64,000 nucleotides of DNA from NCBI GenBank assembly GCA_030829985.1, contig JAURNW010000013.1, forward strand, positions 35,469 to 99,468. Reading direction: 5' to 3'. The position numbers were made by a program, and so were the translations under genes. The first letter of the stretch is position 1. Every line of letters begins with the position of its first letter. Below are positions 28,093-62,326 of the stretch, one piece after another. This stretch comes from Gammaproteobacteria bacterium. GTDB lineage: Bacteria; Pseudomonadota; Gammaproteobacteria; Eutrophobiales; Eutrophobiaceae. Under the pieces are notes generated by a model. The model did no database searches and was not told the origin of the DNA. It saw only the letters and a program-made list of their open reading frames with translations.

Positions 28093-28095
28093 CTA

Positions 28096-29858: not shown

Positions 29859-29885
29859 TTCGAATAGTATTTATTAGTGGGTAAA

Positions 29886-31182: not shown

Positions 31183-31211
31183 AAAAAAAAGGCCTCCGAA
31201 GAGGCCTTTTA
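31183..31211 (-). terminator. Rho-independent terminator of the porin gene
   Basis: A8-GGCCTC-CGAA-GAGGCC-T5. Confidence 0.9.
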
Positions 31212-31249
31212 GTACTTACCAGTTTTCTTCCAACTATAAAATTTTAGTC

Positions 31250-32518: not shown

Positions 32519-33071
32519 GTTGTATTCCTCCTTAAGAAAATACAAATTTATTTACTAATTTACATCTCTAGAGATAAAAATTGGCCTCCCCAGCCTCGTT
32601 TCCCCTAAATCTAGATTCAACAAGTCTTTTGAAGCTACATCTTATATAGCTAGAAAAGCCATTAATAAGACAGCTGTAAAAATACTACATAATTCCATGC
32701 CTTGCAAACATTTATTGTTTTTAATACAACAACAGTATAAATCATTTAAAATTGTTGTTTTTTAACAACGAAAGGTTAAAACTGCATAATTTACAGTAAT
32801 TAGCATTTCTTAATCGGATAGATGATTTATATTTTATTGATTAGTATAGAGACAGAGCGTTGCATAAACGCAACATCTGCCATATTATTCTTATTTTACA
32901 ATTACTTACAGATATTTTTAAATTTGAAATAGAAGGTTTTATTGAGGAGCTTAATTCTACACATAAGTGAATTTTCATTTGAACTGACCTATTACTAATG
33001 GAGTTTAGTCAGTTCACTCAACTATTAAAGTTAACTGATACTTATATAAAGCAATATTTAATCACTACGCT

Positions 33072-33992: not shown

Positions 33993-34093
33993 TAATATGC
34001 TAACGTTATCATGTGGTTGGAAGAATCGTACAGTCGGCTTCATTGAAATAAACATTCTTTGTAAGGATATTTTTAAATCTTTAAATATTAGAA

Positions 34094-34876
34094 TTACTGC
34101 AATACTTTATTTATTTGATTGCCGTTATTATCGTGCCCGGTAAGCGTGAGTCCTTGATATCGATTACTTTCAAGGTCCAGACTAAAGAAAGGGTTTTCAC
34201 TCACGGGCTGGTAAGACTCTATATGCGCCAATAAATCACCGTTACTATCTTTCAATTCCAGTAATTCAATATAAAAAGCCGGAATACCGGATGCCAATCC
34301 CGTGTCCATCGGATGCATAATTCGAAAACGTAATCTATCCGGTTGGTCTTTTCGTGACCAAAGACGTGATTTAACATCACCCAGCGTATCTTCCCAATTA
34401 GCAAGCCCACTACTCACGCTGGGCGCTGTACAACCACCACCCGTCGCATCGAGCCAATGACCTCCAACATGCCAAACACCGTCTTTTGTGCGGGCAGCGG
34501 CGCGGACCGGCGTTGACTGCTGCACCTTAAATCGAAACGCGATAAAGGGTTCAATCTTGCCAGGGTAAAAGTTTAAAATTTTCTGAATAGGATTTAAATC
34601 GGCAAACACTCTGATTTCTTCAATTTCACCTATGTCACCGACTCTGACAGATACAGGCACATTCATTGGATCTTCAGCTACATCAGGCACAACAACTTTA
34701 ACACGCTCATCAAAAACAACTTCTTCATTGAATAACATTGTCTTATGTACTGTTTCCCAGGTGGGAGCGTCTAGCGGATCAACTGATGTTTGTGCGTACA
34801 CAAAATTTACAGCGGCAATCAAGCTTAAGCTTGAAAATATTTTAAAGTAAAATCTTTGTTTGATGTTTATAGACAT
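34094..34876 (-). CDS. Quinoprotein dehydrogenase-associated SoxYZ-like carrier (fused SoxY-SoxZ)
   Basis: AEDPMNVPV, DLNPIQ, TPVRAAA, internal GGGCTAP, then SoxZ-like HPMDTGL...IPAFYI...VSENP. Confidence 0.88.
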   Translation of the reverse strand: MSINIKQRFYFKIFSSLSLIAAVNFVYAQTSVDPLDAPTWETVHKTMLFNEEVVFDERVKVVVPDVAEDPMNVPVSVRVGDIGEIEEIRVFADLNPIQKILNFYPGKIEPFIAFRFKVQQSTPVRAAARTKDGVWHVGGHWLDATGGGCTAPSVSSGLANWEDTLGDVKSRLWSRKDQPDRLRFRIMHPMDTGLASGIPAFYIELLELKDSNGDLLAHIESYQPVSENPFFSLDLESNRYQGLTLTGHDNNGNQINKVLQ

Positions 34877-34995
34877 ATTTTATCCATCTGAAATTACCCT
34901 GTGATTTACCGAATCAGTAATCACCGGGAATAATAATAAATGTAAATGAGTAATAGCATGAAGTATGAATTGTGTGAGATATTTTAAAGTCTACT

Positions 34996-36981
34996 TCAGT
35001 TATATGAAAATGCTAAATTTCTATCAATTTTGTATTTCTTTAACTTTAAATATAATGTGCTCTTTGCGATACCCAAATGGCTGGCAGTCTTAGTAAGGTT
35101 CCCTTTATGATCCTTTATCGCAGATATAATGATAAGGCGTTCCGCATCATCAATACCTAAACTACTATCGTTTGATATAACATCTTTTATAGAAGTGGGG
35201 CTACTATCTTTGCTTGATTTAGAATAGAATTCGCCAGGTAAATCATCCGGTGTGACTGTATCAGTTTGTGACATCAGCACAGAACACTCGACTATATTTC
35301 GTAATTCCCTGATATTGCCAGGCCATTCATACTCTGTTAATACTTTTATAAAGTCAGGTTCGAATTGTTTGACCGAAGTGCCATCTCGTTTTGCAATCTC
35401 CTTGGCAAAATAATGCGTCAAAACTTCAATGTCATTATCACGTTCACGTAATGGTGGAACTGTAAGTGTTATCACTGAAATTCGATAAAATAAATCCATG
35501 CGAAAACGTCCTTCTTTCACATCAAGGTTCAAATCACGGTTAGTTGCAACAAGTACGCGAAAACTTACTTTGCGTTGCTGGTAATCTCCCAAACGACATA
35601 TTTCACCTTCTTGCAAAACTCTTAGAAAATTAGCCTGAATATCAAGCGGCAATTCTCCTATCTCATCAAGGAACAACGTACCACCGTCAGCAGCTTCAAT
35701 TTTTCCTTTTTTACCACCACGGATAGCGCCTGTGAATGCCCCTTCAACATAACCAAACAATTCACTGGTAATTAAATCGCGTGACAAACCACCACAGTTC
35801 AGAGTGATGAGTGGGCCTTTAGCATTGGGTCCTGCGGCATGAATAGCCTTGGCAAACATTTCTTTACCAACCCCTGTTTCTCCATTAATTAATATTGGTA
35901 CTGGAAGTGCTGCAAGACGTTGAGCCTTATTTATAGTTTTTTTAAGTGCTGAACTGGAGCCCACAATATCTTCGAAATATTTTGCATCACTATTTAAAGG
36001 CACCCTGTTCCTGTTTGTTCCTAAATGGACACTGTGCGGGGATGGAATAATTAACATGCTTCCTAGTTGGTCTTGTCCTTCCATAACTGGTTCTATCCAA
36101 TCTGTAGACAACCATTCAGCTTCCGGCATTTTAGATTCATTATTTATACTATGGATAATACTTTTGCCATTACATTTAAAATCAATACCGCGCATTGCGA
36201 GGTTAGATGCCACATTTTCATTTGCCTTCACAAGATATCCATAATTATCCAGGAGCATCAAGGCATCGTTTGTTGGTGAAGAAAACATAGAAACCGCGGC
36301 ATTTAATAATCGATTTTTTTCTTCCAGCTTAATTCCCATAAGCCTACTTTCTATCCTGCCAGCAGCTTCTACAGCCAAAGCCTGTGTATGAAAATTAAAA
36401 TCACTTTTCAATCCGGATATATCCAAAACGCCAATGGTTTCCTGAGTACCTGGATCACGGATAACCATCGAAGTACAGGTCCATGATTTGATACCCTCAC
36501 AAAAATGTTCTGTCGTATTAATTTGTATCGGGCGACCAACGGAAAGAACTGTTCCGATAGCATTAGTTCCCGCCGCATGCTCACTCCAATTTGCCCCGAC
36601 ACATAAACGAATATCATGGCCATCTTCAACTGTCTTGGGGTCACCTTCTACATGCAAACAAATACCATCACGGTCTGCCAAAATCATCATCGAGCCTGAC
36701 TCGGCCAAGAGATCTCGTGCATGTTCCATAACCGGTTTAGCTGCTTCTAGTAATTGAGCATTTTTTCTGAGGAGATTTTGATAGGTTTGGTCATTAACGC
36801 TTAATCGTGTTTTACTACTTGAGGGGTCTACGCCATCTTCTAGACATCGCGCCCATGAATCAATAATGATTCTTCGGATGGAATTTTTGGGTAATTCTCC
36901 GCTGTTAACATATCTATCCCAGGCTAAATCTACCTGACCAGGATTTATATTGAATGCTGAATAAGAGTCATTATTCTTCAT
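34996..36981 (-). CDS. Sigma-54-dependent activator, GAF-AAA+-Fis HTH (AcoR/AcxR-like)
   Basis: SWARC, GTNAIGT and EHF GAF motifs; GETGVGKE, GAFTGA, FLDEIGE, WPGNIREL; LGIAKSTLYLKL HTH. Confidence 0.93.
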   Translation of the reverse strand: MKNNDSYSAFNINPGQVDLAWDRYVNSGELPKNSIRRIIIDSWARCLEDGVDPSSSKTRLSVNDQTYQNLLRKNAQLLEAAKPVMEHARDLLAESGSMMILADRDGICLHVEGDPKTVEDGHDIRLCVGANWSEHAAGTNAIGTVLSVGRPIQINTTEHFCEGIKSWTCTSMVIRDPGTQETIGVLDISGLKSDFNFHTQALAVEAAGRIESRLMGIKLEEKNRLLNAAVSMFSSPTNDALMLLDNYGYLVKANENVASNLAMRGIDFKCNGKSIIHSINNESKMPEAEWLSTDWIEPVMEGQDQLGSMLIIPSPHSVHLGTNRNRVPLNSDAKYFEDIVGSSSALKKTINKAQRLAALPVPILINGETGVGKEMFAKAIHAAGPNAKGPLITLNCGGLSRDLITSELFGYVEGAFTGAIRGGKKGKIEAADGGTLFLDEIGELPLDIQANFLRVLQEGEICRLGDYQQRKVSFRVLVATNRDLNLDVKEGRFRMDLFYRISVITLTVPPLRERDNDIEVLTHYFAKEIAKRDGTSVKQFEPDFIKVLTEYEWPGNIRELRNIVECSVLMSQTDTVTPDDLPGEFYSKSSKDSSPTSIKDVISNDSSLGIDDAERLIIISAIKDHKGNLTKTASHLGIAKSTLYLKLKKYKIDRNLAFSYN

Positions 36982-37114
36982 GTGTAAATCACCTCAACCT
37001 GAATTTTTACTCTTTAATAAAGGTGCATTCACCAATGCGTCTTTATTTCAAGTATTTCAAATATGTCCTATTGTCGCATTTTTGCGATCTAATAATTGAT
37101 TTTATAGGACGAAA

Positions 37115-37131
37115 CGTATGATTATCGTACA
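37115..37131. promoter_or_regulatory. Putative bEBP binding palindrome upstream of the activator gene
   Basis: CGTATGA-TTA-TCGTACA, related to sites at 40709, 40739 and 46272. Confidence 0.45.
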
Positions 37132-37188
37132 CCTTGAAATTGGCTTTATCAAGAAAGAAGTCTCTTGATAGTCATGATTCTCTTATCA

Positions 37189-38055
37189 TCACTGATAATT
37201 AATTCTAGCTGCTGGCACATGATAACTAGCACCATGATTATTGAAAATTTGCTTGATAGTTCCATTCTCTACCAGTTTATCCATAGCGGTCTTAATTGAA
37301 TTGGTCAGTTTTTCATTGCTAGCTTTGACTGCCACGCCCAAATCCCATGATGGTTTAGCTATGCCCGGCATAGACATAAGTCCAATTTGATAATTAGCTT
37401 TGGCGTCACCTAAGCTTGCTTCGATTTCAGTTCGAGCTCCCATTACGGCCGTTATTTCCTTCTTCAATAAGGCCTGGGTAGCCTCTGCTATCGAATAGTA
37501 ATGGACAACGTTATCTCTAATTCGTCCTTGATATGCGCCTAGCAAATAACCATCCGCCATGGTTACGCGCTCAACACCAATCTTATTTGTAAAGAATGTC
37601 GTTATTTGCGGGTTACCACCAAGTTGTTCTGTATCAGCAGCAACCACTACCTGTTCCTCAGAATAAGGAGCGATGAAATTCACCTTGTCTTCTCTTTTCA
37701 TAAGATACTGATCATAAGGTATATGTAACATTACATCCGCCGGCGGACCAGTAACATGATGCCCTTTCCATACATATACTCTCAAATCATCTTCCAGGGA
37801 CTCATCTGCAAAAACCAAACGAATACTAGCCTTAAGTCCTAACTCTTCTGCTAATGCTCTGGCAATATCAACATCAATACCCTCAGCCTTACCATTCTCA
37901 GCCTGATAAGAGTAAGGAGGAAAATTATCATAGGCAGCGAATTTTAGAATATCACTGGTAGTTTCAGCTTGTGCATCGGCGGAAACTTGCATTGATAAAA
38001 ACAAAACTCCGCACAGTAATAAAAGATTTGCACATTTAATCTTCATTTTTAGCAT
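37189..38055 (-). CDS. Quinoprotein dehydrogenase-associated periplasmic substrate-binding protein (MxaJ/PedG-like)
   Basis: YDNFPPYS, GIDVDIA, ESLEDDLR..VWKGH and ADVMLHIPYD motifs; follows the cytochrome c550 gene. Confidence 0.82.
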   Translation of the reverse strand: MLKMKIKCANLLLLCGVLFLSMQVSADAQAETTSDILKFAAYDNFPPYSYQAENGKAEGIDVDIARALAEELGLKASIRLVFADESLEDDLRVYVWKGHHVTGPPADVMLHIPYDQYLMKREDKVNFIAPYSEEQVVVAADTEQLGGNPQITTFFTNKIGVERVTMADGYLLGAYQGRIRDNVVHYYSIAEATQALLKKEITAVMGARTEIEASLGDAKANYQIGLMSMPGIAKPSWDLGVAVKASNEKLTNSIKTAMDKLVENGTIKQIFNNHGASYHVPAARINYQ

Positions 38056-38072
38056 GTCTTATATAATCTCCT

Positions 38073-38510
38073 TCAATCCTCGATTGCTATGGTCTCGATC
38101 CATGCCCATATAGCCCATAACGCTTCCTGGCTAAAAGGACCGCCGTCAGTATCTGCAAAGACAGGCATATAAGTAACACCATTTCTTACAGATCCCTTGC
38201 GAACGCGCATGACATACCACGCATCATCCTCAGCATTATGTTTCATTTTTCGTAAATCAGGGTTTATTCCGCCTGATTTGCCCTGCAGACCATGACAACG
38301 CGCACAGTTCTGTCCATAGGCCGCTTCTCCGATTTTAATGGCTTTTTCATTACCGGAATAAGGATTTCTCTCTAACCATTCGTCACCAAGTTCTTCCAAG
38401 CCTTCCGTATTAACCGGTTGCGGCGCCACATCACCGTGTGCAAAAAGTAAAGGTGAAAAAAAAGAAAAAATACAAATAAATGCAATAGCAGAAATATTAT
38501 TATGTTTCAT
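38073..38510 (-). CDS. pedF: Cytochrome c-550 PedF/ExaB
   Basis: AHGDVAPQPV, NPY, single CARCH heme site, PDLR, YMP; directly downstream of the PQQ-ADH. Confidence 0.9.
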   Translation of the reverse strand: MKHNNISAIAFICIFSFFSPLLFAHGDVAPQPVNTEGLEELGDEWLERNPYSGNEKAIKIGEAAYGQNCARCHGLQGKSGGINPDLRKMKHNAEDDAWYVMRVRKGSVRNGVTYMPVFADTDGGPFSQEALWAIWAWIETIAIED

Positions 38511-38648
38511 AAGATTAGCTTCTCTTAAATTATAATTATGAGCATATCTTTAGACTCGACGAAATATTATGAGTTCATACAAATATTGTGCAAACAGGCG
38601 TTTTATTTTTTTACAACGTTAGATCGAGTAAAGACAAACCATCATTTA

Positions 38649-38685
38649 TAAGTGACGAGGCCAACATTACGTTGGCCCCGACTTA
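38649..38685 (-). terminator. Hairpin downstream of the PQQ-ADH
   Basis: GGCCAAC-ATTAC-GTTGGCC core with extended imperfect stem. Confidence 0.55.
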
Positions 38686-38730
38686 TTACTTATATTGGGT
38701 CACTGGTACCCAAGTATTACCTAGAGTTTA

Positions 38731-40485
38731 TTAATAGAGCTTAAACACGACTAAGCTAGCGCCCTGATTAATTCCCTCAATTTGCTTAGCAACTTCACCA
38801 CCCCATAGAGGTACTGCAGCACCCCAACCAGATGGAACTGCGATGAACTGTTCACCACCCTGTTCCCAGGTAATTGGAGATCCGACGATACCAGAACCGG
38901 TGTTGTACTGCCAAAGCTCTTTACCGGTCTTAGCGTCAACAGCTTTGAAGTAACCTTCTGGTGTACCGTAGAAAACCAGGTTGCCTGCTGTTGCCATTAC
39001 ACCACCCCAAAGAGGAGCTTTGTTTTTGACTTCAAACACCTTCTTACCAGTCATTGGATCAAAAGCACGTAGCGCACCTATATAATCATCAAAGACAGGT
39101 TTGATGCTGAATCCAGCACCCATGTATGCTGCACCTTTCTTATAGGTAACAGGCTCATTCCATAAGTCCATACCCATTTCATTGGCAGGAACATAGAATA
39201 GACCTGTATTTTGGCTGTATGCCATACCCATCCAGTTGGTGCCACCAAGGAAAGAAGGCGTTACTGTAATAACAGAACCTTTTTTACCATCAGCGCTGTC
39301 AGCAGGATTGCCTGGACGCATCCCTGTTTCAATTGGACGACCTGTTTTCAAATCAATCGCACTGGCCCAACTATGCTTTTCAACAAATGGGAAAGCGTTA
39401 ACGAGTTTACCGTTAGTTCTATCTAGTGTGTAGAAAAAACCGTTTCTGTCCGCGTGAGCAGCCAACTTTTTACCACCATTGTTGAAAGCGACCGTATGGT
39501 TTGTACCATCATAATCCCATGCTTCATTTGGTGTATATTGGAAATGCCACTTAATTTTTCCTGTATCTGGATCAACAGCAATTGTTGAGATTGCGTATAG
39601 ATTGTCACCAGGGCGCATATGTGAATTCCAAGGTGCAGGGTTACCTGTACCCCACATAATGGTTTTGGTTTCAGGATCATAGGTTCCTGTGTTCCAAGGT
39701 GCGCCACCACCAACTTTCCAGAGATCGCCAGGCCATGTCGCATTTAACTTACCGGTCATACCATTTGGTTTACCGTTTAAGGTACCGATATGCCCTTCAA
39801 TTGTAGGACGTTCCCAGATTAATTTACCAGTCTTAGCATCAAAACCTCTCAACATACCAATAATACCGAATTCACCACCCGCAACACCGATAATGACTTT
39901 ATCTTCAGCGATAATTGGAGCGGCTGTAGAAGAATGACCTGCTTTAAAATCACCCAGGTTTTGTTTCCAAACCACTTTACCGTTAGCTGTATCTAGTGCA
40001 ATTAACTCTGCATCCAGTGTACCAAAGATAAACAGGTTGTCGAACAACGCTCCACCACGGTTAATTACGTCACAGCAAGGTAATATGCCTTCTGGCAAAC
40101 GATGCTCATACTTCCAGATTTGCATGCCGGTTTCAGCATTAATTGCAAAAACGCGATTGTATGAAGCGGTAACATAAATAACACCATTGTGGACTAATGG
40201 CTGTGCTTCCTGGCCACGCATTTTTTCCCCACCGAAGGAGAAGGTATATGCAGGCGCTAATGTCTTTATGTTTTTATCATTGATTTTCGCAAGTGGGCTC
40301 CAACGTTGGCCTTGTGTACCCATACCATAAGAAACAACATCACCCGTTGTCGTTGCATCATTTTTAATATCGTCAGCAGTAACACCCGCCGCGAGACTAT
40401 TACTCATTGGCGCGGCAACTAAAATACCGGCTATGGCAATTGATTTAAGAAAACCTGACTCGCAGGCAATTGATAAGGACTTCAT
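38731..40485 (-). CDS. pedH: PQQ-dependent alcohol dehydrogenase, lanthanide-type (PedH/ExaF-like)
   Basis: PCCDVINRG vicinal cysteines, GGEFG, GNPAPWN, WDYDG (extra Asp) and AVPLWGG; signal peptide. Confidence 0.88.
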
Positions 40486-46083: not shown

Positions 46084-46167
46084 AATGTTTTCCTCCTAAG
46101 AATTGGTACATAAGTCATCATGGACTTAATGAAACCAGATTGTTTTTATATTTCCACGTTCTCTAAG

Positions 46168-46183
46168 AGCAATAGTCATGCCG
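46168..46183 (-). promoter_or_regulatory. Sigma-54 promoter of acxABC
   Basis: Minus strand CGGCATGACTATTGCT = GG-N10-GC. Confidence 0.75.
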
Positions 46184-46271
46184 TTTTTAAAAAACGTTGC
46201 TATATGAAGATATGTATTTGATTTATAATGGCTTTATTGTAGGCGTGCATTTATTAGATAGCATCTAAAAG

Positions 46272-46288
46272 CGTATGATTTTCATCCG
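46272..46288. promoter_or_regulatory. Putative enhancer (UAS) palindrome for acxABC
   Basis: CGTATGA-TTT-TCATCCG, 90 bp upstream of the -24 element. Confidence 0.5.
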
Positions 46289-46654
46289 ATCGGTCGAACA
46301 CCGGTCTATTATTAGTCTGAACGTTTAATCAAAAACATTAATGGCCCGTAATTTCTATTTGCTTCTGAAAATCTTTTTATAATTTTAATATTATGCCAAG
46401 ATAGGCTAATTCAGTAGGGTTTTAATAACTGATTTATATTATATATAAGTGATAAATATATGTTACATAAAATACCGAAGAATTTGATTATGATTCACAA
46501 TCAAAATAATTATTTCAGTAAAGCTTTATCTTATTTAAAAATAATCTGAATATACGTGGTATAAAATCAAAAAAGATTTTTACTTTATTGTTAATAAGAC
46601 GCTAAACTAGATTTCAGATACATCATTCATATCAGAATATATATTTAATAAACC

Positions 46655-47353
46655 ATGCTAACTAAAACTTTCAAATCGCGATTAATTCTACAATGGTGCA
46701 TATACACAGGTGTTGTCATCTTCCTTTTATGGTTTAGTTTGGAACTCCATCTTTTAGTCAAAATTTTCATTAGTGATCCAACCAAGATCACCTTCCTCAT
46801 AGCTCTGTTTTTTATTGGTGGGACTATACATTGTGGTATCAGAGCAAATTATTTATCGAATCAACTCAATGCAATCATGGATATTGAAGACAATAGCTTA
46901 TCCTGGGAGAACGATAGTTCTTTGCCCGCTGAATTTTTAAGAACCATCACGAAAAGTCTGGAAGGACAAACTTTTAAAGGTGAACAATCTGCAGATAATG
47001 CATTGCTAGCGGAAGTATTCGCTGATCAGGCTCATGCGCAGCATGAGATAGGCTGGTTTTTTACAAGTTTATTAGTAAAGCTGGGTTTGTTAGGCACCGT
47101 GATTGGATTTGTTCTTATGCTTGGTCCACTTTCCACTTTAAAATCATTCGATATAGCAGATGTACAAGGCATTCTCACGTCAATGACAGCTGGAATGGGA
47201 GTTGCTTTGAATACGACCCTGGTTGGTCTATTGGGTAGTATGTTACTCAGCTTTCAATACTTATTACTGGATCGAGGTGCAGATGAAGTCGTCGCGAGAA
47301 CTGTACATTTTATGGAAACCGAGTTAATACCGGAAAAGTTTAAAAAGGCTTAG
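46655..47353 (+). CDS. MotA/TolQ/ExbB proton channel family protein
   Basis: KLGLLGTVIGF and GMGVALNTTLVGL channel helices. Confidence 0.88.
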   Translation: MLTKTFKSRLILQWCIYTGVVIFLLWFSLELHLLVKIFISDPTKITFLIALFFIGGTIHCGIRANYLSNQLNAIMDIEDNSLSWENDSSLPAEFLRTITKSLEGQTFKGEQSADNALLAEVFADQAHAQHEIGWFFTSLLVKLGLLGTVIGFVLMLGPLSTLKSFDIADVQGILTSMTAGMGVALNTTLVGLLGSMLLSFQYLLLDRGADEVVARTVHFMETELIPEKFKKA

Positions 47354-47356
47354 TAG

Positions 47357-47965
47357 ATGAGTATCCGACGCTCATCAAGGCAATTCGAGCAGGATCCGTT
47401 TACGGACTTGTTATTTAATTCTTTGTTAGCCTTTACGCTACTTTTTCTCATCACAATATTATTTCTTAATCCGCCAGCTAAAAAAGGAATTATTGACCCC
47501 AAGGCAGAATTTATTGTGACTATTAAATGGGATGATAGTAGTCCTGATGATGTGGATACCTGGGTGCAGGGACCAAACGGCGGTGTAGTCTGGTTTCGAA
47601 ATTCTGAAGTTGGATTAATACATCTTGATCGTGACGACCGTGGTATAGCAAAAGACAGCATTATCGTTAATGGAGTTGAAGTCATTAATCCATTAAATCA
47701 GGAAGTAGTGACGATACGCGGCAATGTACCAGGAGAATATATTTTTAATGTGCATTACTACAATAGTAAATCATTAAGAAAAGCAAACGTTGAGGTACGA
47801 GCTGTAAAAGTTAATCCGCAATTACAGATTGTATATTACGGTACGCTTACACTAGAAAATAAAGGTGATGAAAAAACGGCAGTGCGTTTTACTATAGATG
47901 CAGAAGGAAATGTCACTAATGTTAATACATTATTTAAATCCATCGTTGAGGTTAATAAATTATGA
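47357..47965 (+). CDS. Putative stator B-type partner: TM with conserved Asp plus atypical periplasmic beta-rich domain
   Basis: RRSSR..DPFTDLLFNSLLAF N-terminal TM; then W..DDVDTWVQGP, LDRDDRG, EVVTIRG and PGEYIFNVHYY. Confidence 0.7.
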   Translation: MSIRRSSRQFEQDPFTDLLFNSLLAFTLLFLITILFLNPPAKKGIIDPKAEFIVTIKWDDSSPDDVDTWVQGPNGGVVWFRNSEVGLIHLDRDDRGIAKDSIIVNGVEVINPLNQEVVTIRGNVPGEYIFNVHYYNSKSLRKANVEVRAVKVNPQLQIVYYGTLTLENKGDEKTAVRFTIDAEGNVTNVNTLFKSIVEVNKL

Positions 47966-48477
47966 ATCAGGCTGTTTTAGGGCTCACGCTAACGTATGTT
48001 GCATTAGCGGCATTAGTGTTGGGAATATTTTTACTCACCCGTTTACCGGTATGGTTAAAATTCACATTTGTACTAACCGTTAGTGGATTTTATTATCTAA
48101 CCTATTTTAGTCTGCAAGGCATGCTAGGTTGGCCTACACAACAAGAATTGCCAGATACATTCCAACTTATGGCTTCATCAATAACAGAACCAGACGAAGA
48201 CGAAGGTATTGCCGGCCGTATTCATATCTGGGCGACTGAGTTTGAAGATAATAAACCGGCAGCTGAACCACGTGCCTATGAACTACCTTATGATCTTGAT
48301 CTGCACTCCGCCCTAGAAGCCGCATTAAAAGAACAACGCAGAGGAAACATTCAACTTGGGAAGAAAAAAGAAGGTAAAACCACTGATGACTTAGCCAGAG
48401 ACCTTTCTAAGTACGGACAGAAACGTGAGGAGATTGAATTTTTTGATCTGCCTGATCCTGAGGTTCCTGAAAAATAA
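47962..48477 (+). CDS. Hypothetical membrane protein (2 N-terminal TMs)
   Basis: Two hydrophobic segments, then GWP...EP...IHIW...PRAYELPY; translationally coupled to the upstream gene. Confidence 0.75.
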   Translation: MNQAVLGLTLTYVALAALVLGIFLLTRLPVWLKFTFVLTVSGFYYLTYFSLQGMLGWPTQQELPDTFQLMASSITEPDEDEGIAGRIHIWATEFEDNKPAAEPRAYELPYDLDLHSALEAALKEQRRGNIQLGKKKEGKTTDDLARDLSKYGQKREEIEFFDLPDPEVPEK

Positions 48478-48481
48478 CATC

Positions 48482-49240
48482 ATGCTCATAAAAAACATAT
48501 TAACTATGAAAATTTTTAATTGCTTAATACTTTCAATACTTCTAGTTTTTTCACTCGCAGGCTGTTCTGAAAAACCAGTAGGAAGTAAATATTTTCCACT
48601 AAATGAGGGGATGAGTTGGACTTACAGTTTAACAACAGAATATAGCAATGAAGAAGAATCACTCGAGAAACAATTAACTATTACCAATCTTGGTGTAGAA
48701 AAATTTGGTAAACAAACTTATTACGTACGCCGAACCAGTTCAGGGATCGATTACTATCATAATTTTGATGAAACAGGACTGTTTCGTGAAGCCTTGCGTA
48801 CACTAGTCGAAAGCAAACCACGCATGGATAGAGCGAAACGCTATGTTTTAAAACAACCGTTGGAAATTGGTACGGAATGGCGTGAGATCAGTCGTCCATT
48901 ACTTATGTTGCGCGTTTACCCTTATCGTGTGCGTGTTGGTAAAGATGCACAGGTTCCTATGATTTATCGAATTGAATCCTTATCCGAAACTGTCACTGTA
49001 GCAGCTGGCACATTTGAAAATTGTATTAAAGTGGTCGCAAATGGGACCTTCAATACCTATACCGATGCGGTCAGTGGCGACACAGAAATTCCTATGAAGG
49101 TGGAAGAATGGTATGCCCCAGGAGTTGGATTAGTGAAACAGATACGCTATGAACTTGATGGCGACATTATTGATATATTTAATACGCCGGTTTTCCTGGG
49201 TGGGCGCTCTACTCTTGCATTACAATCGTTCGATAATTAA
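48482..49240 (+). CDS. Hypothetical lipoprotein
   Basis: Lipobox LAGC; YFPL..G.SWTY, VTVAAGTFENCIKV and EWYAPGVGLVK. Confidence 0.78.
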   Translation: MLIKNILTMKIFNCLILSILLVFSLAGCSEKPVGSKYFPLNEGMSWTYSLTTEYSNEEESLEKQLTITNLGVEKFGKQTYYVRRTSSGIDYYHNFDETGLFREALRTLVESKPRMDRAKRYVLKQPLEIGTEWREISRPLLMLRVYPYRVRVGKDAQVPMIYRIESLSETVTVAAGTFENCIKVVANGTFNTYTDAVSGDTEIPMKVEEWYAPGVGLVKQIRYELDGDIIDIFNTPVFLGGRSTLALQSFDN

Positions 49241-49283: not shown

Positions 49284-49586
49284 TTATCCACCGCCTTTCT
49301 GAAAGGTGGTATTAAATTTCTCTAGATACGTATCTATTTGTTCTTTGGTCAAACCTTGAAATTTAAAATTCATTGGTGTGTGATGGATTGAAAGTGATGC
49401 GATTTTTCTGGTTAGCTGATTATCCAGGTTAATATCCACATACCCATTCAAGAAAGGAAAACTAACACTTGAATTTTCCGGATCAATTTTTAATAAATGA
49501 CCGTCGATTATTGTTTTAATAATCAGTCGATAAAACTCGTCATGCGTCACTGCCATATCGCGTTTTAACTCAATTGATTCAGTCAC
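49284..49586 (-). CDS. Small AOR-operon protein ending FQKGGG (AorE-like)
   Basis: Last gene of the aor operon; C-terminal triglycine. Confidence 0.65.
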   Translation of the reverse strand: MTESIELKRDMAVTHDEFYRLIIKTIIDGHLLKIDPENSSVSFPFLNGYVDINLDNQLTRKIASLSIHHTPMNFKFQGLTKEQIDTYLEKFNTTFQKGGG

Positions 49587-56099: not shown

Positions 56100-57050
56100 A
56101 TGAAATTATATTTGGCACCACTGTTATTATTATTTACCTTCAATGCTACTGCTGCTGAACTTACCGGGCGCATATTTGTTACAAACGAGCGATCCAATAC
56201 TGTTTCCGTCATTAGTAGTAGTACATTGGACGTTGAAGCAACTATAGATATAGGTGAACGGCCAAGAGGCATTGGTCTCTCTCCAGATGGAAGTGAACTG
56301 TATGTCGCTGTTAGCGAAGAAAATAAGATTAAAGTTGTTGATCCATCATCACTCAAGATATTGAGAGAATTTGATGCAGGCTCTGATCCGGAAACATTTG
56401 CGGTACATCCTAATGGAAACATCTATATCTCTAATGAAGATGATGCCAAGGCAAGTGTCTTTAACCCTAAGACTGGAGAGCAAGTAGCGGCTATACAAGT
56501 CGGTTTAGAACCAGAGGGCGTTGCAATATCTCCCGATGGGAAACGCGTCATTGTTACCAGTGAATCAACCAACATGCTGCATGTTATAAAAGCACCTGAA
56601 AATATAATTGAAAGTAATATTCTGGTTGGTTCTCGTCCACGAGCAGCCACTTTCACACAAGCAGGTAATATTGCCTATGCCACTGCGGAAATTAGTGGCG
56701 AAGTCGTTAAAGTGGATGTGGACAGTGGCAAGATTTTAAAAATAGGAAGCACCGGTGATAGCAAATCAAAACCAAAGGATGTTGTTTTAAGCAAAGATGA
56801 ATCAACTATTTATGTCGCTGGCGGCAGGGCGAACAAGGTTGTGGTGATGGATGCTGATACGCTTGAAATCATAAAAGGCATTCCAGTCGGCAAACGTGTT
56901 TGGGGACTGGCCATAAGTAAAGATGGAAAACGCATATTCACTACCGATGGTGTCAGTGGAACTGTATCTGTTATCGATACAGAACAGAATGAAGTCATTA
57001 AAACCATTAACGTTGGTGAATTCCCATGGGGAGTCATCATTAACGATTAA
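56100..57050 (+). CDS. PQQ-catabolism-associated YVTN beta-propeller protein
   Basis: FVTNE, RPRGIGLSPDG, DPETFA, YISNEDD, VGLEPEG and VG.FPWG repeats. Confidence 0.88.
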   Translation: MKLYLAPLLLLFTFNATAAELTGRIFVTNERSNTVSVISSSTLDVEATIDIGERPRGIGLSPDGSELYVAVSEENKIKVVDPSSLKILREFDAGSDPETFAVHPNGNIYISNEDDAKASVFNPKTGEQVAAIQVGLEPEGVAISPDGKRVIVTSESTNMLHVIKAPENIIESNILVGSRPRAATFTQAGNIAYATAEISGEVVKVDVDSGKILKIGSTGDSKSKPKDVVLSKDESTIYVAGGRANKVVVMDADTLEIIKGIPVGKRVWGLAISKDGKRIFTTDGVSGTVSVIDTEQNEVIKTINVGEFPWGVIIND

Positions 57051-57059
57051 CAACTAAAT

Positions 57060-57093
57060 TAACGGGACAGATAGACTTTAATCTGTCCCGTTA
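57060..57093. terminator. Bidirectional terminator between convergent genes
   Basis: TAACGGGACAGAT...ATCTGTCCCGTTA, a 13-bp stem. Confidence 0.8.
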
Positions 57094-57106
57094 GTTATTA
57101 TTATAT

Positions 57107-57748
57107 TCATGCCTGAATAATATTATACCGGATAGCAATGCGCGCAATATCGGCAACAGTTGTAACATCGAGTTTATTCTTGATCTGTGTACTATAATTA
57201 GCAACCGTCTTGTAACTCAAGGATAAGCGCTTGGCAATCTCACTGGTATTTGAGCCTTCAGCCAACATACAAAATATTTCAAATTCACGTGTAGATAGAT
57301 CTGACAATAAAGAATCTTGTCCTCTAGACTTTTCATAAGCTAATCTTTGTGCAACTTCGGTATCTATATATTTTCCTCCTTTTGATAGAACTGATATAGC
57401 ATCTACCAGCAACTGAGGATCAGTGCTTTTCGTTATGTAGCCATTTGCCCCCGCCTGTAATGCCTGTTCTACAAAGATATTTTCTTCATGCATACTGAAA
57501 ACAAGAATTTTAGCCTTACTGTCACGCAAACAAATCCGCTTGATTGTATCTATACCTCCTATCCCGGGTAAAGATAGATCCATAACTACTACATCAGGTT
57601 TGTGATTACAATATAATTGATAAGCTTCTTCGCCATTACTCGCTTCCGCAATAACTTCTATCTCTGGTGAATTTTTCAACAACATTTGATAACCCGCACG
57701 AACGACAGCATGATCATCAACCAACATTACTTTAATCATTTCATTCAT
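57107..57748 (-). CDS. NarL/LuxR family response regulator (PedR2/MxcE-like)
   Basis: LVDDHAVVR, VMDLSLPG, GYITK and LSTREFEI..KTVANY motifs. Confidence 0.9.
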   Translation of the reverse strand: MNEMIKVMLVDDHAVVRAGYQMLLKNSPEIEVIAEASNGEEAYQLYCNHKPDVVVMDLSLPGIGGIDTIKRICLRDSKAKILVFSMHEENIFVEQALQAGANGYITKSTDPQLLVDAISVLSKGGKYIDTEVAQRLAYEKSRGQDSLLSDLSTREFEIFCMLAEGSNTSEIAKRLSLSYKTVANYSTQIKNKLDVTTVADIARIAIRYNIIQA

Positions 57749-57759
57749 AGCTCCATCGT

Positions 57760-59097
57760 TCATGAATTTAGTGGTATACGGATATTTATGTCTATTCCAC
57801 ACTTACTTTCACTCGTGAGTTCAAAGCTCCCGTTATTCATCCCTACCCTTTTCTTCATGCCAGACAAACCTAAACCCATCACCATATTCTCTTTATCAAT
57901 TCCGATACCATCGTCCTGGATTTTTAAAATTATATAGTCTGACCCCGATTCAGTAACCTTATTCATTGTTACTAAAACATTAGTGGCTGATGAGTGTCTT
58001 AGGGCGTTTGTTAAACTTTCCTGAATGATTCTAAATAGATTGATATTTAACGACTCTGACAACCCGTCAGGTATATCTGAAAACGAAAAATGACAAAAAA
58101 TATCATCTTGCCTGCTATTCCAATCATCAATCATTGTTTGCAAAGCCTTAATCAGACCAAATTCATCCAGCACTGATGGACGTAAGCGATGCATCATATT
58201 TTTAGCCACTTGATAGATATGATCTGAATATTCAATAATTGTCTTTACACTGGATTTAATATGATTTTCGTCAGACTTTTGATTATTCATAATAGCAGCC
58301 GCAACTGCTTTAATTGCAGCAATCGTTTGTCCTAATTCATCGTGTAGTTCTTGTGCCAGGTGGCGCCGCTCTTCTTCCTGAATTTCCAGCGAGCGTTGTG
58401 TTAGTGACTGATTTTTAGCCTTACTTTCCGATAAGACTTTCGCCATATGATTAAATTGTTGTGATATTCGATCAAGTTCAGGCAATCGAAAACGTGGCAA
58501 CTCTAATTGATAATTTCCTTTTTGAATATCAGACAAGCCTGATAATATTATATCGATTGGAGCTAAATACTTGCCTATAACCAAATACAACATCGAATTC
58601 GCAAGAACAATAAAGATTAACAGAAAAGCCAATACCCCCCTTACTTCAACCCAGTTTTCATCAATCTCATCTGCAGGATCAGCACGGATAAGTATACCTG
58701 TTGGAGGAATTGCCGGGTTATAGATCCAATGTCTGATTTCAGTTGGCGGTGGTTGTACAAGCTTTACAAACCAGTCCGGAGCACTAGTAGCATTTAGTGA
58801 AGTAAATTCTTCAATCGGCACTAACACGTCATTCGAATTATATATATCGATGTGTAGATGACGCGTCTCATCTAATTCTGATAGCTTCTTTATAAGCTGT
58901 TTTTGCTCATTTTCATCGGATTCCAATGTTGCCGAGGAGAAGGCAATCTGGATTAGATTCAGCGCCAGTTCTGCTGTTGATTCAACTTCATGCTGTACAG
59001 AATTACGTGCGTTAGCAATAATATAAAAACTACTGCTAATAAACAGGCTAATGAATAACAATGTTATAAGAAAATTAAGCCTGACTCTAAGGCTCAT
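57760..59097 (-). CDS. Membrane sensor histidine kinase (PedS2/MxcQ-like; HAMP, HisKA_3)
   Basis: MSLRVRLN TM, periplasmic RHL..APDWF, HAMP, QEEERRHLAQELHDELGQ, QESLTNALRHS and DDGIG. Confidence 0.88.
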   Translation of the reverse strand: MSLRVRLNFLITLLFISLFISSSFYIIANARNSVQHEVESTAELALNLIQIAFSSATLESDENEQKQLIKKLSELDETRHLHIDIYNSNDVLVPIEEFTSLNATSAPDWFVKLVQPPPTEIRHWIYNPAIPPTGILIRADPADEIDENWVEVRGVLAFLLIFIVLANSMLYLVIGKYLAPIDIILSGLSDIQKGNYQLELPRFRLPELDRISQQFNHMAKVLSESKAKNQSLTQRSLEIQEEERRHLAQELHDELGQTIAAIKAVAAAIMNNQKSDENHIKSSVKTIIEYSDHIYQVAKNMMHRLRPSVLDEFGLIKALQTMIDDWNSRQDDIFCHFSFSDIPDGLSESLNINLFRIIQESLTNALRHSSATNVLVTMNKVTESGSDYIILKIQDDGIGIDKENMVMGLGLSGMKKRVGMNNGSFELTSESKCGIDINIRIPLNS

Positions 59098-59267: not shown

Positions 59268-60044
59268 ATGGGAAAACAATACCAGCTTTCAGTTATAATC
59301 GTTATTCTGCTTTTGGCGGGTTATAACACTTCATCCGCTGAAATCACATCTCTTGAGGCAGCAATCGAAACTAAAATGCAGGCTCAGAAAGATGTTGTAA
59401 AATCGCAGGCAAAAGTCGACAAATTAGTCGAACAAACTGCCGATATGGTCGAGAAATATCGCGATATTATTGAAAAGACAGACAGTCTTGAAACATATAA
59501 TGTTCAGCTATCAAAACTCGTCAAACAACAGAAAGTATCGTTAAGTTCAATTAAACGTCAACTTGACAATGTTGAAGAGACTCAACGCAGCATTGTCCCA
59601 TTTATGATCAAGATGATTGATACTCTCGATAAATTTGTAATGCTTGATTTGCCATTCCTGACACAGGAGCGACAACAACGTGTCGCCGATTTAAAAACTA
59701 TCATGGACCGTCCAGATGTCAGCTTGCCTGAGAAATACCGTCGTATTATGGAAGCCTACCAAATCGAAATGGAATATGGACGAACCATTGAAACCTACAC
59801 AGACGCGGTCAAGATAGATGGTCAGGAATATACCGTTGATATTTTACGAGTTGGCCGATTACTAATTAGTTTTCAATCATTAGATGGGGAATTAAGTGGG
59901 CTCTGGAATAAAGAATCAAATATGTGGGAAAAATTATCATCTGAATATGACCGTTCCATCAAGCAAGGGATTCAAATTGCGAAAAAGCAGGCTCCACCTG
60001 AATTAATAAAACTACCCATCGATGTCACAGGTAAAAGAAAATGA
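59268..60044 (+). CDS. DUF3450 family protein (TonB2 system TtpB-like)
   Basis: Signal peptide, coiled coil, LDLPF..ER, EKYRRIMEAYQIE.EYG and LRVGR motifs. Confidence 0.85.
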   Translation: MGKQYQLSVIIVILLLAGYNTSSAEITSLEAAIETKMQAQKDVVKSQAKVDKLVEQTADMVEKYRDIIEKTDSLETYNVQLSKLVKQQKVSLSSIKRQLDNVEETQRSIVPFMIKMIDTLDKFVMLDLPFLTQERQQRVADLKTIMDRPDVSLPEKYRRIMEAYQIEMEYGRTIETYTDAVKIDGQEYTVDILRVGRLLISFQSLDGELSGLWNKESNMWEKLSSEYDRSIKQGIQIAKKQAPPELIKLPIDVTGKRK

Positions 60045-61387
60045 ATAGATTAATTATTTTAGGTCTACTCATCTTCCTGTCCCCCGCTTTTGCTGATGAA
60101 CCAAATGATTTGCAGTCACTATTAGAACAAGTGAAAAATGATCGCTCACAGGAAAAACAGGCTCTGGCAAAACGTGAATCAGTTTTTGCAAATGACCGTA
60201 ATAAACAGAAAGAATTACTCGCTGAAGCATCAAAAAAACTGGAAGAAGTGGAAGCGCGCAGTGAATTTTTAAGAAAAAGTTATAACGGTAATGATATCGA
60301 GATTGCGCGGCAAAACGCCCTGTTAAGAGAAAAAATGGGCGCACTGGGTGAGCTTGATGGCATAGTCAAACAAATCGCAGGTGACCTTGATGTCATAATC
60401 GACACATCTCTGGTTTCCGCACAAAAACCGGGGCGCGATAAAATCTTAAATGTTTTATCCAGTCGTAAAGAATTACCCTCGTTACAGGAATTAGAAGAAC
60501 TCTGGATACTGGCTATGGATGAGATGGTCGAATCCGGAAAAGTGATTACATTCCCCGGCAAAATCGTTACTGCAGCTGGGAATGAAATTGAGCAAGATGT
60601 GACACGCATCGGAGTATTCAATGCCGTATCTGCAGGTCGTTTTTTGAGGAATCTCCCTGAAACAGGCAAATTGATTGAGCCTGGCCGACAACCCGGACAG
60701 CGTTATCTGGATATGGCGCAAGATCTTGAAATGTCTGATGCAGGACTACATGCATTTCCTATCGACCCCACCCGCGGTGCAATGTTGGCACTATTAGTAC
60801 AAGTGCCCGATTTGAAAAATCGTATTGAGCAGGGTGGGCTCGTGGGTTACGTAATATTATTTATTGGTCTGGTTGGAATCTTAATCTCTTTGGAGAGACT
60901 TTTCGTGTTAGTGCTAACTGGACGAAAAGTAAACCGACAACTTAAAAATAAAAATCCTGAAAATAATCCACTCGGGCGCATCATGCAGGTCTATTTAAAG
61001 AATACGAATGTTGATACTGAAACCCTTGGGCTAAAACTGGATGAAGCGGTTCTGAAAGAAATGCCGAAAATACAACGCGGATTAAGCACACTGGCTTTAC
61101 TTGCTGCTGTTTCGCCATTACTTGGCTTGCTTGGAACGGTAACAGGAATTATTGAAACATTTCAATCAATTACCCTTTATGGCACTGGTGACCCACGGGT
61201 TATGTCCGGCGGTATATCACAAGCACTTGTGACAACGGTAATGGGTCTTTTGGTAGCTATCCCACTGCTGTTGTTTCATAGCTTATTATCTTCAAAAAGT
61301 AATACTCTGGTTCAGGTACTGGATGAAAAAAGTACTGCCTTCGTAGCCCTGCTTGCAGAGAAAAACCAGACTAATAACAATGCTTGA
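60041..61387 (+). CDS. Large MotA/TolQ/ExbB family protein (TtpC-like)
   Basis: LPSLQELEELW, VTRIGVFN, IDPTRG, PLLGLLGTVTG and GGISQALVTT motifs. Confidence 0.88.
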   Translation: MNRLIILGLLIFLSPAFADEPNDLQSLLEQVKNDRSQEKQALAKRESVFANDRNKQKELLAEASKKLEEVEARSEFLRKSYNGNDIEIARQNALLREKMGALGELDGIVKQIAGDLDVIIDTSLVSAQKPGRDKILNVLSSRKELPSLQELEELWILAMDEMVESGKVITFPGKIVTAAGNEIEQDVTRIGVFNAVSAGRFLRNLPETGKLIEPGRQPGQRYLDMAQDLEMSDAGLHAFPIDPTRGAMLALLVQVPDLKNRIEQGGLVGYVILFIGLVGILISLERLFVLVLTGRKVNRQLKNKNPENNPLGRIMQVYLKNTNVDTETLGLKLDEAVLKEMPKIQRGLSTLALLAAVSPLLGLLGTVTGIIETFQSITLYGTGDPRVMSGGISQALVTTVMGLLVAIPLLLFHSLLSSKSNTLVQVLDEKSTAFVALLAEKNQTNNNA

Positions 61388-61895
61388 ACAAATGGACATA
61401 ATGAGAGATTTCTTCTCTAAAGGAGGTCCTGTCCTTTCAGGTGTATTTATATTGTCAATATTTTTATGGCTATTAATACTTGAACGATATTATTTTCTGT
61501 ATGTGGTTTACCCAAAACACCTTGAGTCAATAGTGACGCAGTGGCAAGAAAGACGCGAACAATCATCATGGTATGCACTTAAAATCAGAGATGGCCTTTT
61601 GAGTGAGGCATCTATCGCTTTAAAACGTAATCTGATACCAATACAAACATTAACAGGCATTTTACCGTTATTGGGCTTACTCGGTACAGTTACCGGCATG
61701 ATTGCTATATTTGAAGTTTTAAATGTCTTCGGTAACGGCAATGCACGTGGTATGGCTGATGGTATTTCAAAAGCATTGTTACCTACAACAGCTGGACTGG
61801 TTACCTCAATTATTGGTATTTATTTTAGTGCCGATCTCAATAAACGAACTAAAACTAAAGAATTATTAGCCAAAGATTTATTAACACATAATTGA
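61380..61895 (+). CDS. exbB: ExbB family proton channel
   Basis: GGPVL, PLLGLLGTVTGMI and GISKALLPTTAGL motifs. Confidence 0.88.
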   Translation: MLEQMDIMRDFFSKGGPVLSGVFILSIFLWLLILERYYFLYVVYPKHLESIVTQWQERREQSSWYALKIRDGLLSEASIALKRNLIPIQTLTGILPLLGLLGTVTGMIAIFEVLNVFGNGNARGMADGISKALLPTTAGLVTSIIGIYFSADLNKRTKTKELLAKDLLTHN

Positions 61896-62302
61896 TTATG
61901 AGACGCACACATACTAAACAAGAAACTGCAGCAGAGAGCGTTAACCTGACCCCTCTGATCGATATGGTATTTATACTATTGATATTCTTTCTGGTTACGG
62001 CATCGTTCACTAAGGAATCAGGCATAGATGTTGACCGACCCACTGCACAAACGGCCAACCGGGAAGAACATGGCAGCATGATCATTGGTGTCAGCAAGAA
62101 AGGCGATATATGGATAGATAATCAAAAAATAGACTTACGTGCTGTTCGAGCACACGTAGAGCATTTACACGCACAAAATCCGGAAGGAACTGTCATTATA
62201 CTCGCTGATAAAAATGCCCGGACGGGTACTACCGTTGAAGTACTTGATCAAGTTCGTCTCGCCGGCGTATCTAATGTGTCTATCGCTGCTTCAAATGAAT
62301 AA
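61892..62302 (+). CDS. exbD: Biopolymer transporter ExbD
   Basis: NLTPLIDMVFILLIFFLVT and ADK motifs. Confidence 0.92.
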   Translation: MIMRRTHTKQETAAESVNLTPLIDMVFILLIFFLVTASFTKESGIDVDRPTAQTANREEHGSMIIGVSKKGDIWIDNQKIDLRAVRAHVEHLHAQNPEGTVIILADKNARTGTTVEVLDQVRLAGVSNVSIAASNE

Positions 62303-62326
62303 TATAAATTTCGCATTGCGTAAATT

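Follow-up and report, generated by a model that had tools for sequence, protein, structure and literature searches.

We analysed a 64,000-nucleotide stretch of a gammaproteobacterial genome (contig JAURNW010000013.1 of assembly GCA_030829985.1; hereafter the window) and describe here a cassette of four genes, named A, B, C and D, at positions 46655-49240 of its plus strand (Table 1). The products of A and B would form an ion-driven complex of the MotAB/ExbBD/TolQR kind, whose task is probably tied to periplasmic dehydrogenases dependent on pyrroloquinoline quinone (PQQ); judged from sequence comparison, we give this reading a probability of roughly 0.55. Ion-driven motors with a 5:2 stoichiometry are known to power flagella, TonB-dependent import, the Tol-Pal system, gliding and type IX secretion, and Zorya defence.

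Layout and subunits of the cassette

The four open reading frames (ORFs) are close-packed. The stop codon of A and the start of B are 3 nt apart (TAG-TAG-ATG), B and C overlap by 4 nt, and D begins 4 nt after the stop codon of C if it starts at ATG 48482 and not at the GTG upstream. On the minus strand, the upstream flank encodes acetone carboxylase (hydantoinase A/B and gamma subunit) and the downstream flank a ThiS-like gene, a pyridine-nucleotide-disulphide oxidoreductase, an aldehyde:ferredoxin oxidoreductase and a ferredoxin. The spacer between the divergent acetone carboxylase gene and A is presumed to be the promoter region of the cassette; sigma-70-like matches in it were weak and fewer than in shuffled sequences. 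Terminator-like hairpins were as frequent in the region (2) as in shuffles (mean 2.1), so that the one directly 3' of D is a weak terminator candidate. Two studies contributed metatranscriptome libraries with contigs identical to the window; these include stretches of each of the four genes and span the A/B and C/D junctions, with parts of the cassette and of the upstream spacer uncovered. They fit transcription of the cassette as a unit, though a single transcript cannot be proved from contigs and some DNA may be present in RNA libraries. The cassette is not a chance arrangement, because its gene order recurs in dozens of unrelated contigs.

Gene A is a member of the MotA/ExbB/TolQ channel family, matching Pfam MotA_ExbB with an E-value of 1.9e-8 over residues 139-214 (34.6 bits, cut-off 22.9). 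It has four predicted transmembrane (TM) helices, and the last two keep the motifs KLGLLGTVIGF and ALNTTLVGL, both of which align with the canonical ExbB of the window itself. In alignment A3, which includes this ExbB, the residues L143, G144, L145, G147, G151, G180, A184, T188, G191 and L192 are invariant. Thr148 (in KLGLLGT) and T187/T188 also align with the ExbB, and Thr residues in pore helices are described as facing the Asp of the B-type subunit (PMC12204202). A profile built from 12 A proteins and the ExbB of the window matched solved structures of ExbB (the best match, 3.3e-5), TolQ, MotA and PomA.

Gene B opens with basic residues followed by one helix (residues 14-36 in the model) that carries Asp17 in the motif PFTDLLF. 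This is the single N-terminal TM helix with a conserved Asp found in ExbD, TolR and MotB, and Asp17 aligned with the Asp of the ExbD in the window (PLIDMVF), over the TM segment only and with an hhalign probability of 14%. Of 120 close clusters, 118 retain the Asp; in a set of 150 distant representatives, 133 have Asp, nine a gap, five Val, two Ala and one Arg. The periplasmic part is another matter. No OmpA, ExbD or MotB domain matched the B query at E<=1 in Pfam or NCBIfam, the periplasmic domain matched no family of either collection, and the ZorB models of PADLOC gave no match. Across 58 members of the B family, the ExbD/TolR family (PF02472) matched three weakly (best 0.0051, the query not among them) and MotB_plug matched one weakly (0.055).

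The AlphaFold2 model of B (predicted local distance difference test score, pLDDT, 89.1; predicted template modelling score 0.73) has a beta-rich periplasmic domain whose predicted fold is that of TerD, the top match by two methods. Foldseek returned four hits at E<=0.001, all of them TerD-family entries (E about 7e-5), and VIA-align placed TerD first with Z 10.0 (root-mean-square deviation, rmsd, 3.8 over 133 residues) and Z 9.4 (rmsd 3.6 over 135 residues), the next rows falling to Z 6.0. The TerD entries concerned, tellurite-resistance proteins with a Ca2+-binding beta-sandwich, are 2kxt and 2qz7 of the Protein Data Bank (PDB), and the match with Z 9.4 is a nuclear magnetic resonance structure whose title refers to calcium binding. 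TerD proteins themselves are soluble and cytoplasmic, while the B domain, similarly rich in Asp, would be membrane-anchored and periplasmic; no sequence-level match to them came up in the profile searches described below. At the level of sequence, the domain holds as a remote homolog of YfaP/DUF2135: the B family aligned with Escherichia coli YfaP at a probability of 87% (hhalign, E 3.7e-6, 75 columns), over the segments W-D...D-x-D-L-x-V...P-x-G and PGxY...YY. The likeness stays below the Pfam threshold, with DUF2135 (PF09906) matching six of the 58 members weakly (best E 0.0022) and the query not at all, and yfaP of E. coli differs in lying in a yfaQ-yfaS-yfaT-yfaA cluster without a motor gene. 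No description of a function for DUF2135 was found, the term itself being absent from the literature searched. D65, D67, D93, D94, E116, W58 and G96 of B are invariant or nearly so, and the acidic pattern D65/D67/D93/D94/E116 is as would be expected of a cation site.

Gene C has two helices (2-25 and 30-51) with an invariant GW just after them, then a beta-rich domain that includes one helix, a disordered segment and, at the extreme C-terminus, the tail DLPxPxLPEK. In alignment A2, L163, P169 and K171 of the tail are invariant and P164 is kept in at least 90%. Positively charged residues in the short inter-helix loop suggest that both ends face the periplasm. C matched nothing in Pfam, NCBIfam or PADLOC, its Atlas clusters are all named 'hypothetical', and a fold search with its model (pLDDT 73.5) gave VIA-align rows over the helical hairpin 1-54 only and a best Foldseek E of 0.11. 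The tail after the disordered linker resembles a short docking motif.

The ORF of gene D opens at GTG 48425, and its likelier starts are ATG 48482 (the likeliest) and ATG 48506, its relatives aligning only from residue 19-26 onward. D carries the lipobox LAGC, with the Cys codon at 48563-48565, and its residues 185-247 match DUF3108_like (E 3.7e-8, 33.9 bits, cut-off 27); it also matches weakly the solved 'putative lipoprotein' 4fvs.

The original prediction, made from the letters and their ORFs, had placed four tightly spaced genes between acetone carboxylase and aldehyde:ferredoxin oxidoreductase and had read gene 1 as carrying both ExbB/MotA channel helices, gene 2 as a basic start plus one TM helix with an ExbD-like Asp, gene 3 as two TM helices with a soluble domain, and gene 4 as a lipoprotein. 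All of this agrees with the results above, as does its statement that the operon contains no tonB, tolA or flagellar gene: the cassette has none, and no flagellar genes lie nearby either. The prediction depended on conservation of the Asp in homologs, which was found, and on gene 2 not being a canonical ExbD, TolR, MotB or ZorB, for which the searches for defining domains were negative or weak. Its comparison with YfaP/DUF2135 by eye was borne out as remote homology.

Table 1. Positions of the cassette, its parts and PQQ-related features; window coordinates except in the last row.
Feature	Position	Strand	Remark
Spacer, AT-rich, 571 nt	46084-46654		between divergent acetone carboxylase gene and A; presumed promoter region
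A, 232 aa, MotA/ExbB/TolQ-family channel subunit	46655-47353	+	Pfam PF01618
Two channel helices of A, about residues 135-158 and 178-204	47057-47266	+	alignment A3
B, 202 aa: basic N-terminus, TM helix 14-36, periplasmic beta-sandwich about 46-202	47357-47965	+	
GAC codon of Asp17 in TM helix (PFTDLLF)	47405-47407	+	
Periplasmic domain of B: TerD-like fold, remote DUF2135/YfaP relative	47492-47962	+	AlphaFold2 model, hhalign
C, 171 aa: two TM helices, GWP motif, beta-rich domain, disordered linker	47962-48477	+	
C-terminal motif of C, DLPDPEVPEK	48445-48474	+	alignment A2
D, lipoprotein with DUF3108-like beta-barrel	48482-49240	+	Pfam PF21347
Terminator-like hairpin directly 3' of D	49290-49310	+	weak evidence
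pqqB	25016-25930	+	
pqqC	25949-26671	+	
pqqE	26926-28092	+	
SBP_bac_3 protein	37189-38055	-	
Cytochrome c	38073-38510	-	
PQQ-dependent dehydrogenase, with WDYDG	38731-40485	-	
Paralogous cassette	G000:C6:114084-118601 (= L038 6084-10601)		about 16-19 kb past window end

Comparison with known motors and spread of the cassette

In relation to the Ton system (ExbB-ExbD-TonB), A belongs to the ExbB family, B shares the topology and the PF-x-D TM motif of ExbD, and the gene order (channel, Asp-helix protein, third membrane protein) is the same. On the other hand, the ExbD periplasmic domain is absent from B, the helices predicted for A number four (counted by eye) and not three, and no TonB-dependent receptor is a constant neighbour. 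A TonB/TolA transducer has one N-terminal TM helix with an SHLS/His motif, a Pro-rich linker and a TonB_C or TolA C-terminal domain (as described in PMC12204202). A disordered linker and a Pro-rich tail are present in C, which nevertheless differs from TonB and TolA in its two TM helices, the absence of His within them and the absence of a TonB_C domain (Pfam negative). MotAB and PomAB share with the cassette the channel family, the four-helix layout of A and the Asp in the helix of B; B, however, has neither a plug nor an OmpA-like peptidoglycan-binding domain, and the cytoplasmic loop of A is short.

As in Tol-Pal, motor genes, a membrane protein and a lipoprotein come in the order tolQ-tolR-tolA...pal, with the lipoprotein last, and TolQ is among the solved matches of the A profile. 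This might suggest that the cassette is a general motor of envelope maintenance without a specific role in PQQ enzymes, A-B-C-D running parallel to TolQ-TolR-TolA-Pal and travelling with PQQ genes only by shared lifestyle. However, the cassette contains no TolB, D is DUF3108-like and not an OmpA-like Pal, the domain of B is a TerD-like sandwich, and C is without TolA/TonB features. Moreover, the source genome has further MotA_ExbB-family loci elsewhere. Overall we regard this as rather unlikely, and the distribution that bears on it is given below.

A Zorya-like anti-phage system, with A resembling ZorA, is highly improbable and was rejected. PADLOC ZorA models did match A, at best with 4.9e-6 and 23.5 bits, and NCBIfam ZorA models reached 16.8 bits or less against cut-offs of 100-700, but these matches cover only the helices shared by MotA and ExbB and lie far below the cut-offs. 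B, with ZorB unmatched, and likewise C and D found no match in PADLOC, no ZorC/D/E-like genes accompany the cassette, and its chromosomal context is stable across families and includes coupling to pqq genes.

Non-canonical motors of this kind have been noticed before. An article of 2025 in Mol Biol Evol (PMC12204202) describes uncharacterised modules in Proteobacteria in which motors driven by proton motive force, TolQ-like, have non-canonical partners, and states that more of them remain to be found. The partners described there are proteins of TM helix, linker and vWA domain, encoded beside tolQR-like genes or replacing TolR; here, in contrast, B is DUF2135/TerD-like, and the vWA protein of the sister cassette described below is built differently (signal peptide, vWA, TM helix, FHA). 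Neither PQQ nor DUF terms occur in the main text of that article. A survey of MotAB relatives from 2025, in the passages considered here, places many non-flagellar pairs under 'of unknown function' and does not describe this cassette. Our searches, with article supplements outside their scope, found no literature on the cassette; they found only the canonical TonB system for lanthanide and xoxF together with ExbB/ExbD, and only genome surveys for pqqE or pqqB together with ExbB/MotA/TolQ. The cassette is real, widespread and uncharacterised, and by the defining domains in its protein sequences is none of ExbD/TolR, MotB/ZorB, Zorya, Tol-Pal or TonB/TolA.

A word-indexed search with B gave 3828 hits among 3913 candidates, and an exhaustive search gave 1795 representative clusters at 50% identity (E<=0.001), of which 176 reached E<=1e-30. 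The source names are 'hypothetical protein', 'YfaP (DUF2135 family)' (JGI, Atlas) and, rarely, 'ExbD'. We collected 94 loci, all with at least 52% identity in B: 14 came from genomes, found with a single B protein, and 80 were metagenome contigs, the best of 551 confirmed matches of a scan with the narrower alignment A4. Where the contigs leave room, A lies upstream of B in 73 of 74 loci and C follows B in 72 of 75. The fourth gene is more variable; it is D-like in 43 of 63 loci, encodes a vWA-FHA protein in ten and was unrecognised in ten. The acetone carboxylase and aldehyde:ferredoxin oxidoreductase flanks are kept only in L009-L015, whose B is at least 92% identical.

The source genome itself carries one D-type and one vWA-type cassette, the second about 33 kb downstream and outside the window. 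The latter is ordered YkuD L,D-transpeptidase, DUF302 lipoprotein, A', B', C' and vWA-FHA protein. A' has 247 aa (40.4 bits against PF01618), B' has 197 aa with 61% identity to B and the Asp kept, and C' has 170 aa; the cassette ends with a 495-aa protein of signal peptide, vWA domain, TM helix and FHA domain, the structure of the vWA-type fourth gene in general. This layout recurs in L020 and many metagenome loci, and vWA-type cassettes have an L,D-transpeptidase gene and a DUF302 gene upstream, an arrangement seen in 13 of the 54 loci with room for it. Beyond Gammaproteobacteria, B was also found in Bradyrhizobium and in marine alphaproteobacterial metagenome-assembled genomes.

Linkage with PQQ metabolism

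A PQQ dehydrogenase or pqqB/C/E accompanies the cassette in 15 of the 46 loci whose flanks reach at least 5 kb, over a range of GC content from 0.43 to 0.72. The closest association is in L101, whose order is pqqB-C-D-E-A-B-C-D and then a PQQ dehydrogenase; pqqE and A are 2 nt apart and each junction within the cassette is a 4-nt overlap, so that in this locus the cassette is, as read from the sequence, translationally coupled to pqqBCDE. In L040, pqqB, C and E lie directly upstream of the cassette. On a FastTree tree of 48 B proteins (long-flank rows; supports weaker than those of a full search), the PQQ-linked loci make up 15 of the 17 rows of one clade, plus the pair L096/L109 and the window, and the linkage requires at least four changes. 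In all six genomes of two families (f1 and f7), B lies 4-30 kb from the nearest PQQ dehydrogenase; in two Bradyrhizobium-type genomes, the distance is 473 kb or the dehydrogenase is on another contig.

Genome-level co-occurrence was examined in 400 gammaproteobacterial genomes of 320 genera. B was found in 44 of them (34 genera, 29 families) and pqqC in 62. Among the carriers of B, 29 have pqqC (66%), against 33 of 356 non-carriers (9%), the latter including four genomes flagged as unpublished (G681, G534, G693 and G435); the 29 carriers fall in 20 of the 29 carrier families. The other 15 carriers divide into four with a PQQ dehydrogenase and 11 in which none was found at E<=1e-20. In a sample of 401 Pseudomonadota genomes, B occurs in 13 and pqqC in 52, and nine of the 13 carriers have pqqC. 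An explanation of the PQQ link as a lineage-specific coincidence was rejected from the neighbour annotation and the co-occurrence across families.

We also typed 45 cassette places in these genomes by their fourth gene, the typing and the neighbour calls both resting on tblastn with few queries at E<=1e-5 and at least 35% coverage. Of the D-type places (n=14), 11 are in genomes with pqqC, two in genomes with a dehydrogenase only and one in a genome with neither (73% complete); for vWA-type places (n=11) the counts are ten, one and none, and for places with an unrecognised fourth gene (n=20) eight, two and ten. Thus 24 of 25 D- or vWA-type places are in genomes with pqqC or a PQQ dehydrogenase. 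PQQ-cluster genes, meaning an SBP_bac_3 protein of the XoxJ kind, a cytochrome c, a dehydrogenase, a PqqB-like gene or a YNCE-like propeller, lie within about 4 kb of eight of the 14 D-type places, in seven families, with the reservation that binding proteins of other kinds may be picked up by the SBP_bac_3 query. Physical linkage in several families and strong co-occurrence at the genome level, the latter for both full cassette types, support the tie to PQQ, all as read from genome sequences.

Several observations weigh against a task in PQQ metabolism. In the window itself, the dehydrogenase is 6 kb off, on the far side of the acetone carboxylase genes, with the pqq genes 18.5 kb upstream. 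The closest loci outside the genus (L016, L018, L019 and L048) have no PQQ gene in their flanks, which span 6-12 kb for the first three. Neither pqqC nor a PQQ dehydrogenase is present in 11 of 44 carriers, including genomes of 1.1 Mb, and bare A-B(-C) versions occur in genomes without PQQ genes; three of the 11 genomes are at most 75% complete, and most of the 11 hold only A-B(-C) with the fourth gene unrecognised. Related genomes are not independent, so that the co-occurrence overstates its significance, and a shared lifestyle may lie behind it. None of the 11 vWA-type places has PQQ-cluster genes within about 4 kb, and residues of the canonical ion path are altered in two clades: the pore Thr of A is Lys (KLGLLGK) in L039-L041 and L101, and the Asp of B is Val in L042-L044. 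The case for a strict role in PQQ metabolism is weakened by these last two points and by the bare A-B(-C) versions. The subunit assignments have weak sides as well: A passes the curated PF01618 cut-off with a low score, TerD is not among the first 25 of the 51 families matched by members of the B family at E<=1, and no TerD chain came up in a PDB profile search with B at E<=10. The original prediction of a distinct motor class serving quinoprotein metabolism, with homologs linked to PQQ or one-carbon (C1) loci, is thus partly supported, by its family membership and by a linkage that is both physical and genomic but not universal. Its further proposals, gene 3 as a possible force transducer and a handling of metal or PQQ by the acidic domain, are hypothetical.

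Possible task and competing readings

PQQ dehydrogenases hold a Ca or lanthanide ion in the active site. To our knowledge, the route by which PQQ and the metal reach the periplasmic apo-enzymes is still poorly understood. In the mechanism that we propose, A would form the channel ring and the single helix of B, with its conserved Asp, would sit in the pore, so that ion flow would move B relative to A. The output of B would be the Asp-rich beta-sandwich of the TerD/DUF2135 type, probably binding Ca2+ or a similar cation. C would be an obligatory third membrane subunit with a small domain and a proline-rich tail directed to the periplasm, and D an outer partner lipoprotein, probably bound to the outer membrane. 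Such a module might supply PQQ or its metal (Ca, lanthanide), insert either of them or keep it in place, or it might help to assemble the enzyme system. Metal or cofactor handling is the most attractive guess, because the domain of B is acidic and PQQ enzymes hold a Ca or lanthanide ion.

A more specific version, in which A-B-C-D is a proton-driven machine for periplasmic quinoproteins that delivers or locks in PQQ and/or Ca2+/lanthanide, or moves PQQ out of the cell interior, is tentative, and we consider it possible but on the doubtful side. Such a machine would draw on the membrane potential, and delivery or locking would go by way of the acidic TerD-like domain of B and of the lipoprotein D. 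If true, it would give the 5:2 motor family a new job and provide a candidate for the step between cytoplasmic PQQ synthesis and the periplasmic holo-enzyme. The cassette would in addition be a large branch of the ion-driven motors, with another output domain and a third subunit without known family. The tie to PQQ across genomes yields a concrete and testable hypothesis, and cultured carriers exist; proteins identical to B-family members are recorded for strains of Hydrogenophaga, Rhizobacter, Limnohabitans, Bradyrhizobium and Tardiphaga.

The envelope-maintenance motor introduced above draws on the carriers without any PQQ gene (11 of 44), on the cassette core in 1.1-Mb genomes, on low-GC marine loci that adjoin rodA and pbp2 and on the vWA-type cassettes with an L,D-transpeptidase gene upstream. 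It does not account for the excess of pqqC in carriers (66% against 9%, in 20 families) or for the translational coupling to pqqBCDE in L101. The bare A-B pair in 1.1-Mb genomes hints at a core function that is independent of PQQ.

The regulators near some cassettes could point in another direction, namely that the Asp-rich domain of B senses periplasmic Ca2+/lanthanide or the state of the envelope and that A-B-C relays this to regulators. HisKA_3 kinases adjoin the cassette in L042-L044, L129 and L171, the gene most often seen upstream encodes a sigma-54 activator with a GAF domain (15 loci), the alternative fourth gene has a cytoplasmic FHA domain, and some clades lack the canonical ion-path residues. 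Yet none of the four window proteins has a signalling domain, the regulators accompany only some of the cassettes, and strong conservation of the TM Asp is what ion coupling would lead one to expect. We consider a sensor clearly less probable than an envelope motor and prefer an ion-driven complex tied to PQQ-dependent dehydrogenases.

Variants and neighbouring genes

The A genes with Lys for the pore Thr (L039:7359-8039, L040:7550-8212, L041:7343-8044 and L101:8216-9004) belong to the clade most tightly linked to pqq genes, and B keeps its Asp there; five Lys around two Asp would alter the ion path. The B genes with Val for Asp (L042:8096-8782, L043:7488-8126 and L044:8128-8802) read FDPLGVMLFK, with a Lys five residues after the Val, and may encode a non-conducting or differently coupled form. 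Their loci have no recognised fourth gene and a HisKA_3 kinase adjoining the cassette, and identical proteins are recorded as hypothetical in Bradyrhizobium and Tardiphaga.

Four longer forms of B were found, all fusions to MotA_ExbB (PF01618). They are the metagenome protein clusters P0313-P0316 (397-457 aa), with the MotA_ExbB domain and B in one polypeptide; a 1:1 fusion does not fit a 5:2 stoichiometry, and they are either read-through or assembly artefacts or a real variant. In L022 (6316-7519), two tandem B paralogs lie beside a YNCE-like beta-propeller gene, and tblastn found neither A nor C. The A-B pairs in 1.1-Mb genomes are L157 (G576) and L158 (G730), in which our queries found no C and which have no PQQ genes.

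The PQQ genes of the window lie in a C1/PQQ island at 21718-40485. The W-D-Y-D-G of its dehydrogenase is presumably the Asp-x-Asp signature of lanthanide-dependent enzymes. The island also holds methanopterin-type genes (4-HFC-P synthase, DUF447, DUF6513 and a pterin-binding enzyme), an alpha/beta hydrolase, a metallo-beta-lactamase with a SoxY-SoxZ fusion and a GAF sigma-54 activator. The lactamase and SoxYZ pair of this island directly adjoins the 3' side of the cassette in L109. A separate canonical Ton-type cluster occupies 59268-63999 of the window and consists of DUF3450, a MotA_ExbB protein (448 aa), ExbB (180 aa), ExbD, TonB and a TPR protein; it is preceded, at 56100-59097, by a MoxY-type HisKA_3 kinase, a LuxR regulator and a YNCE-like beta-propeller.

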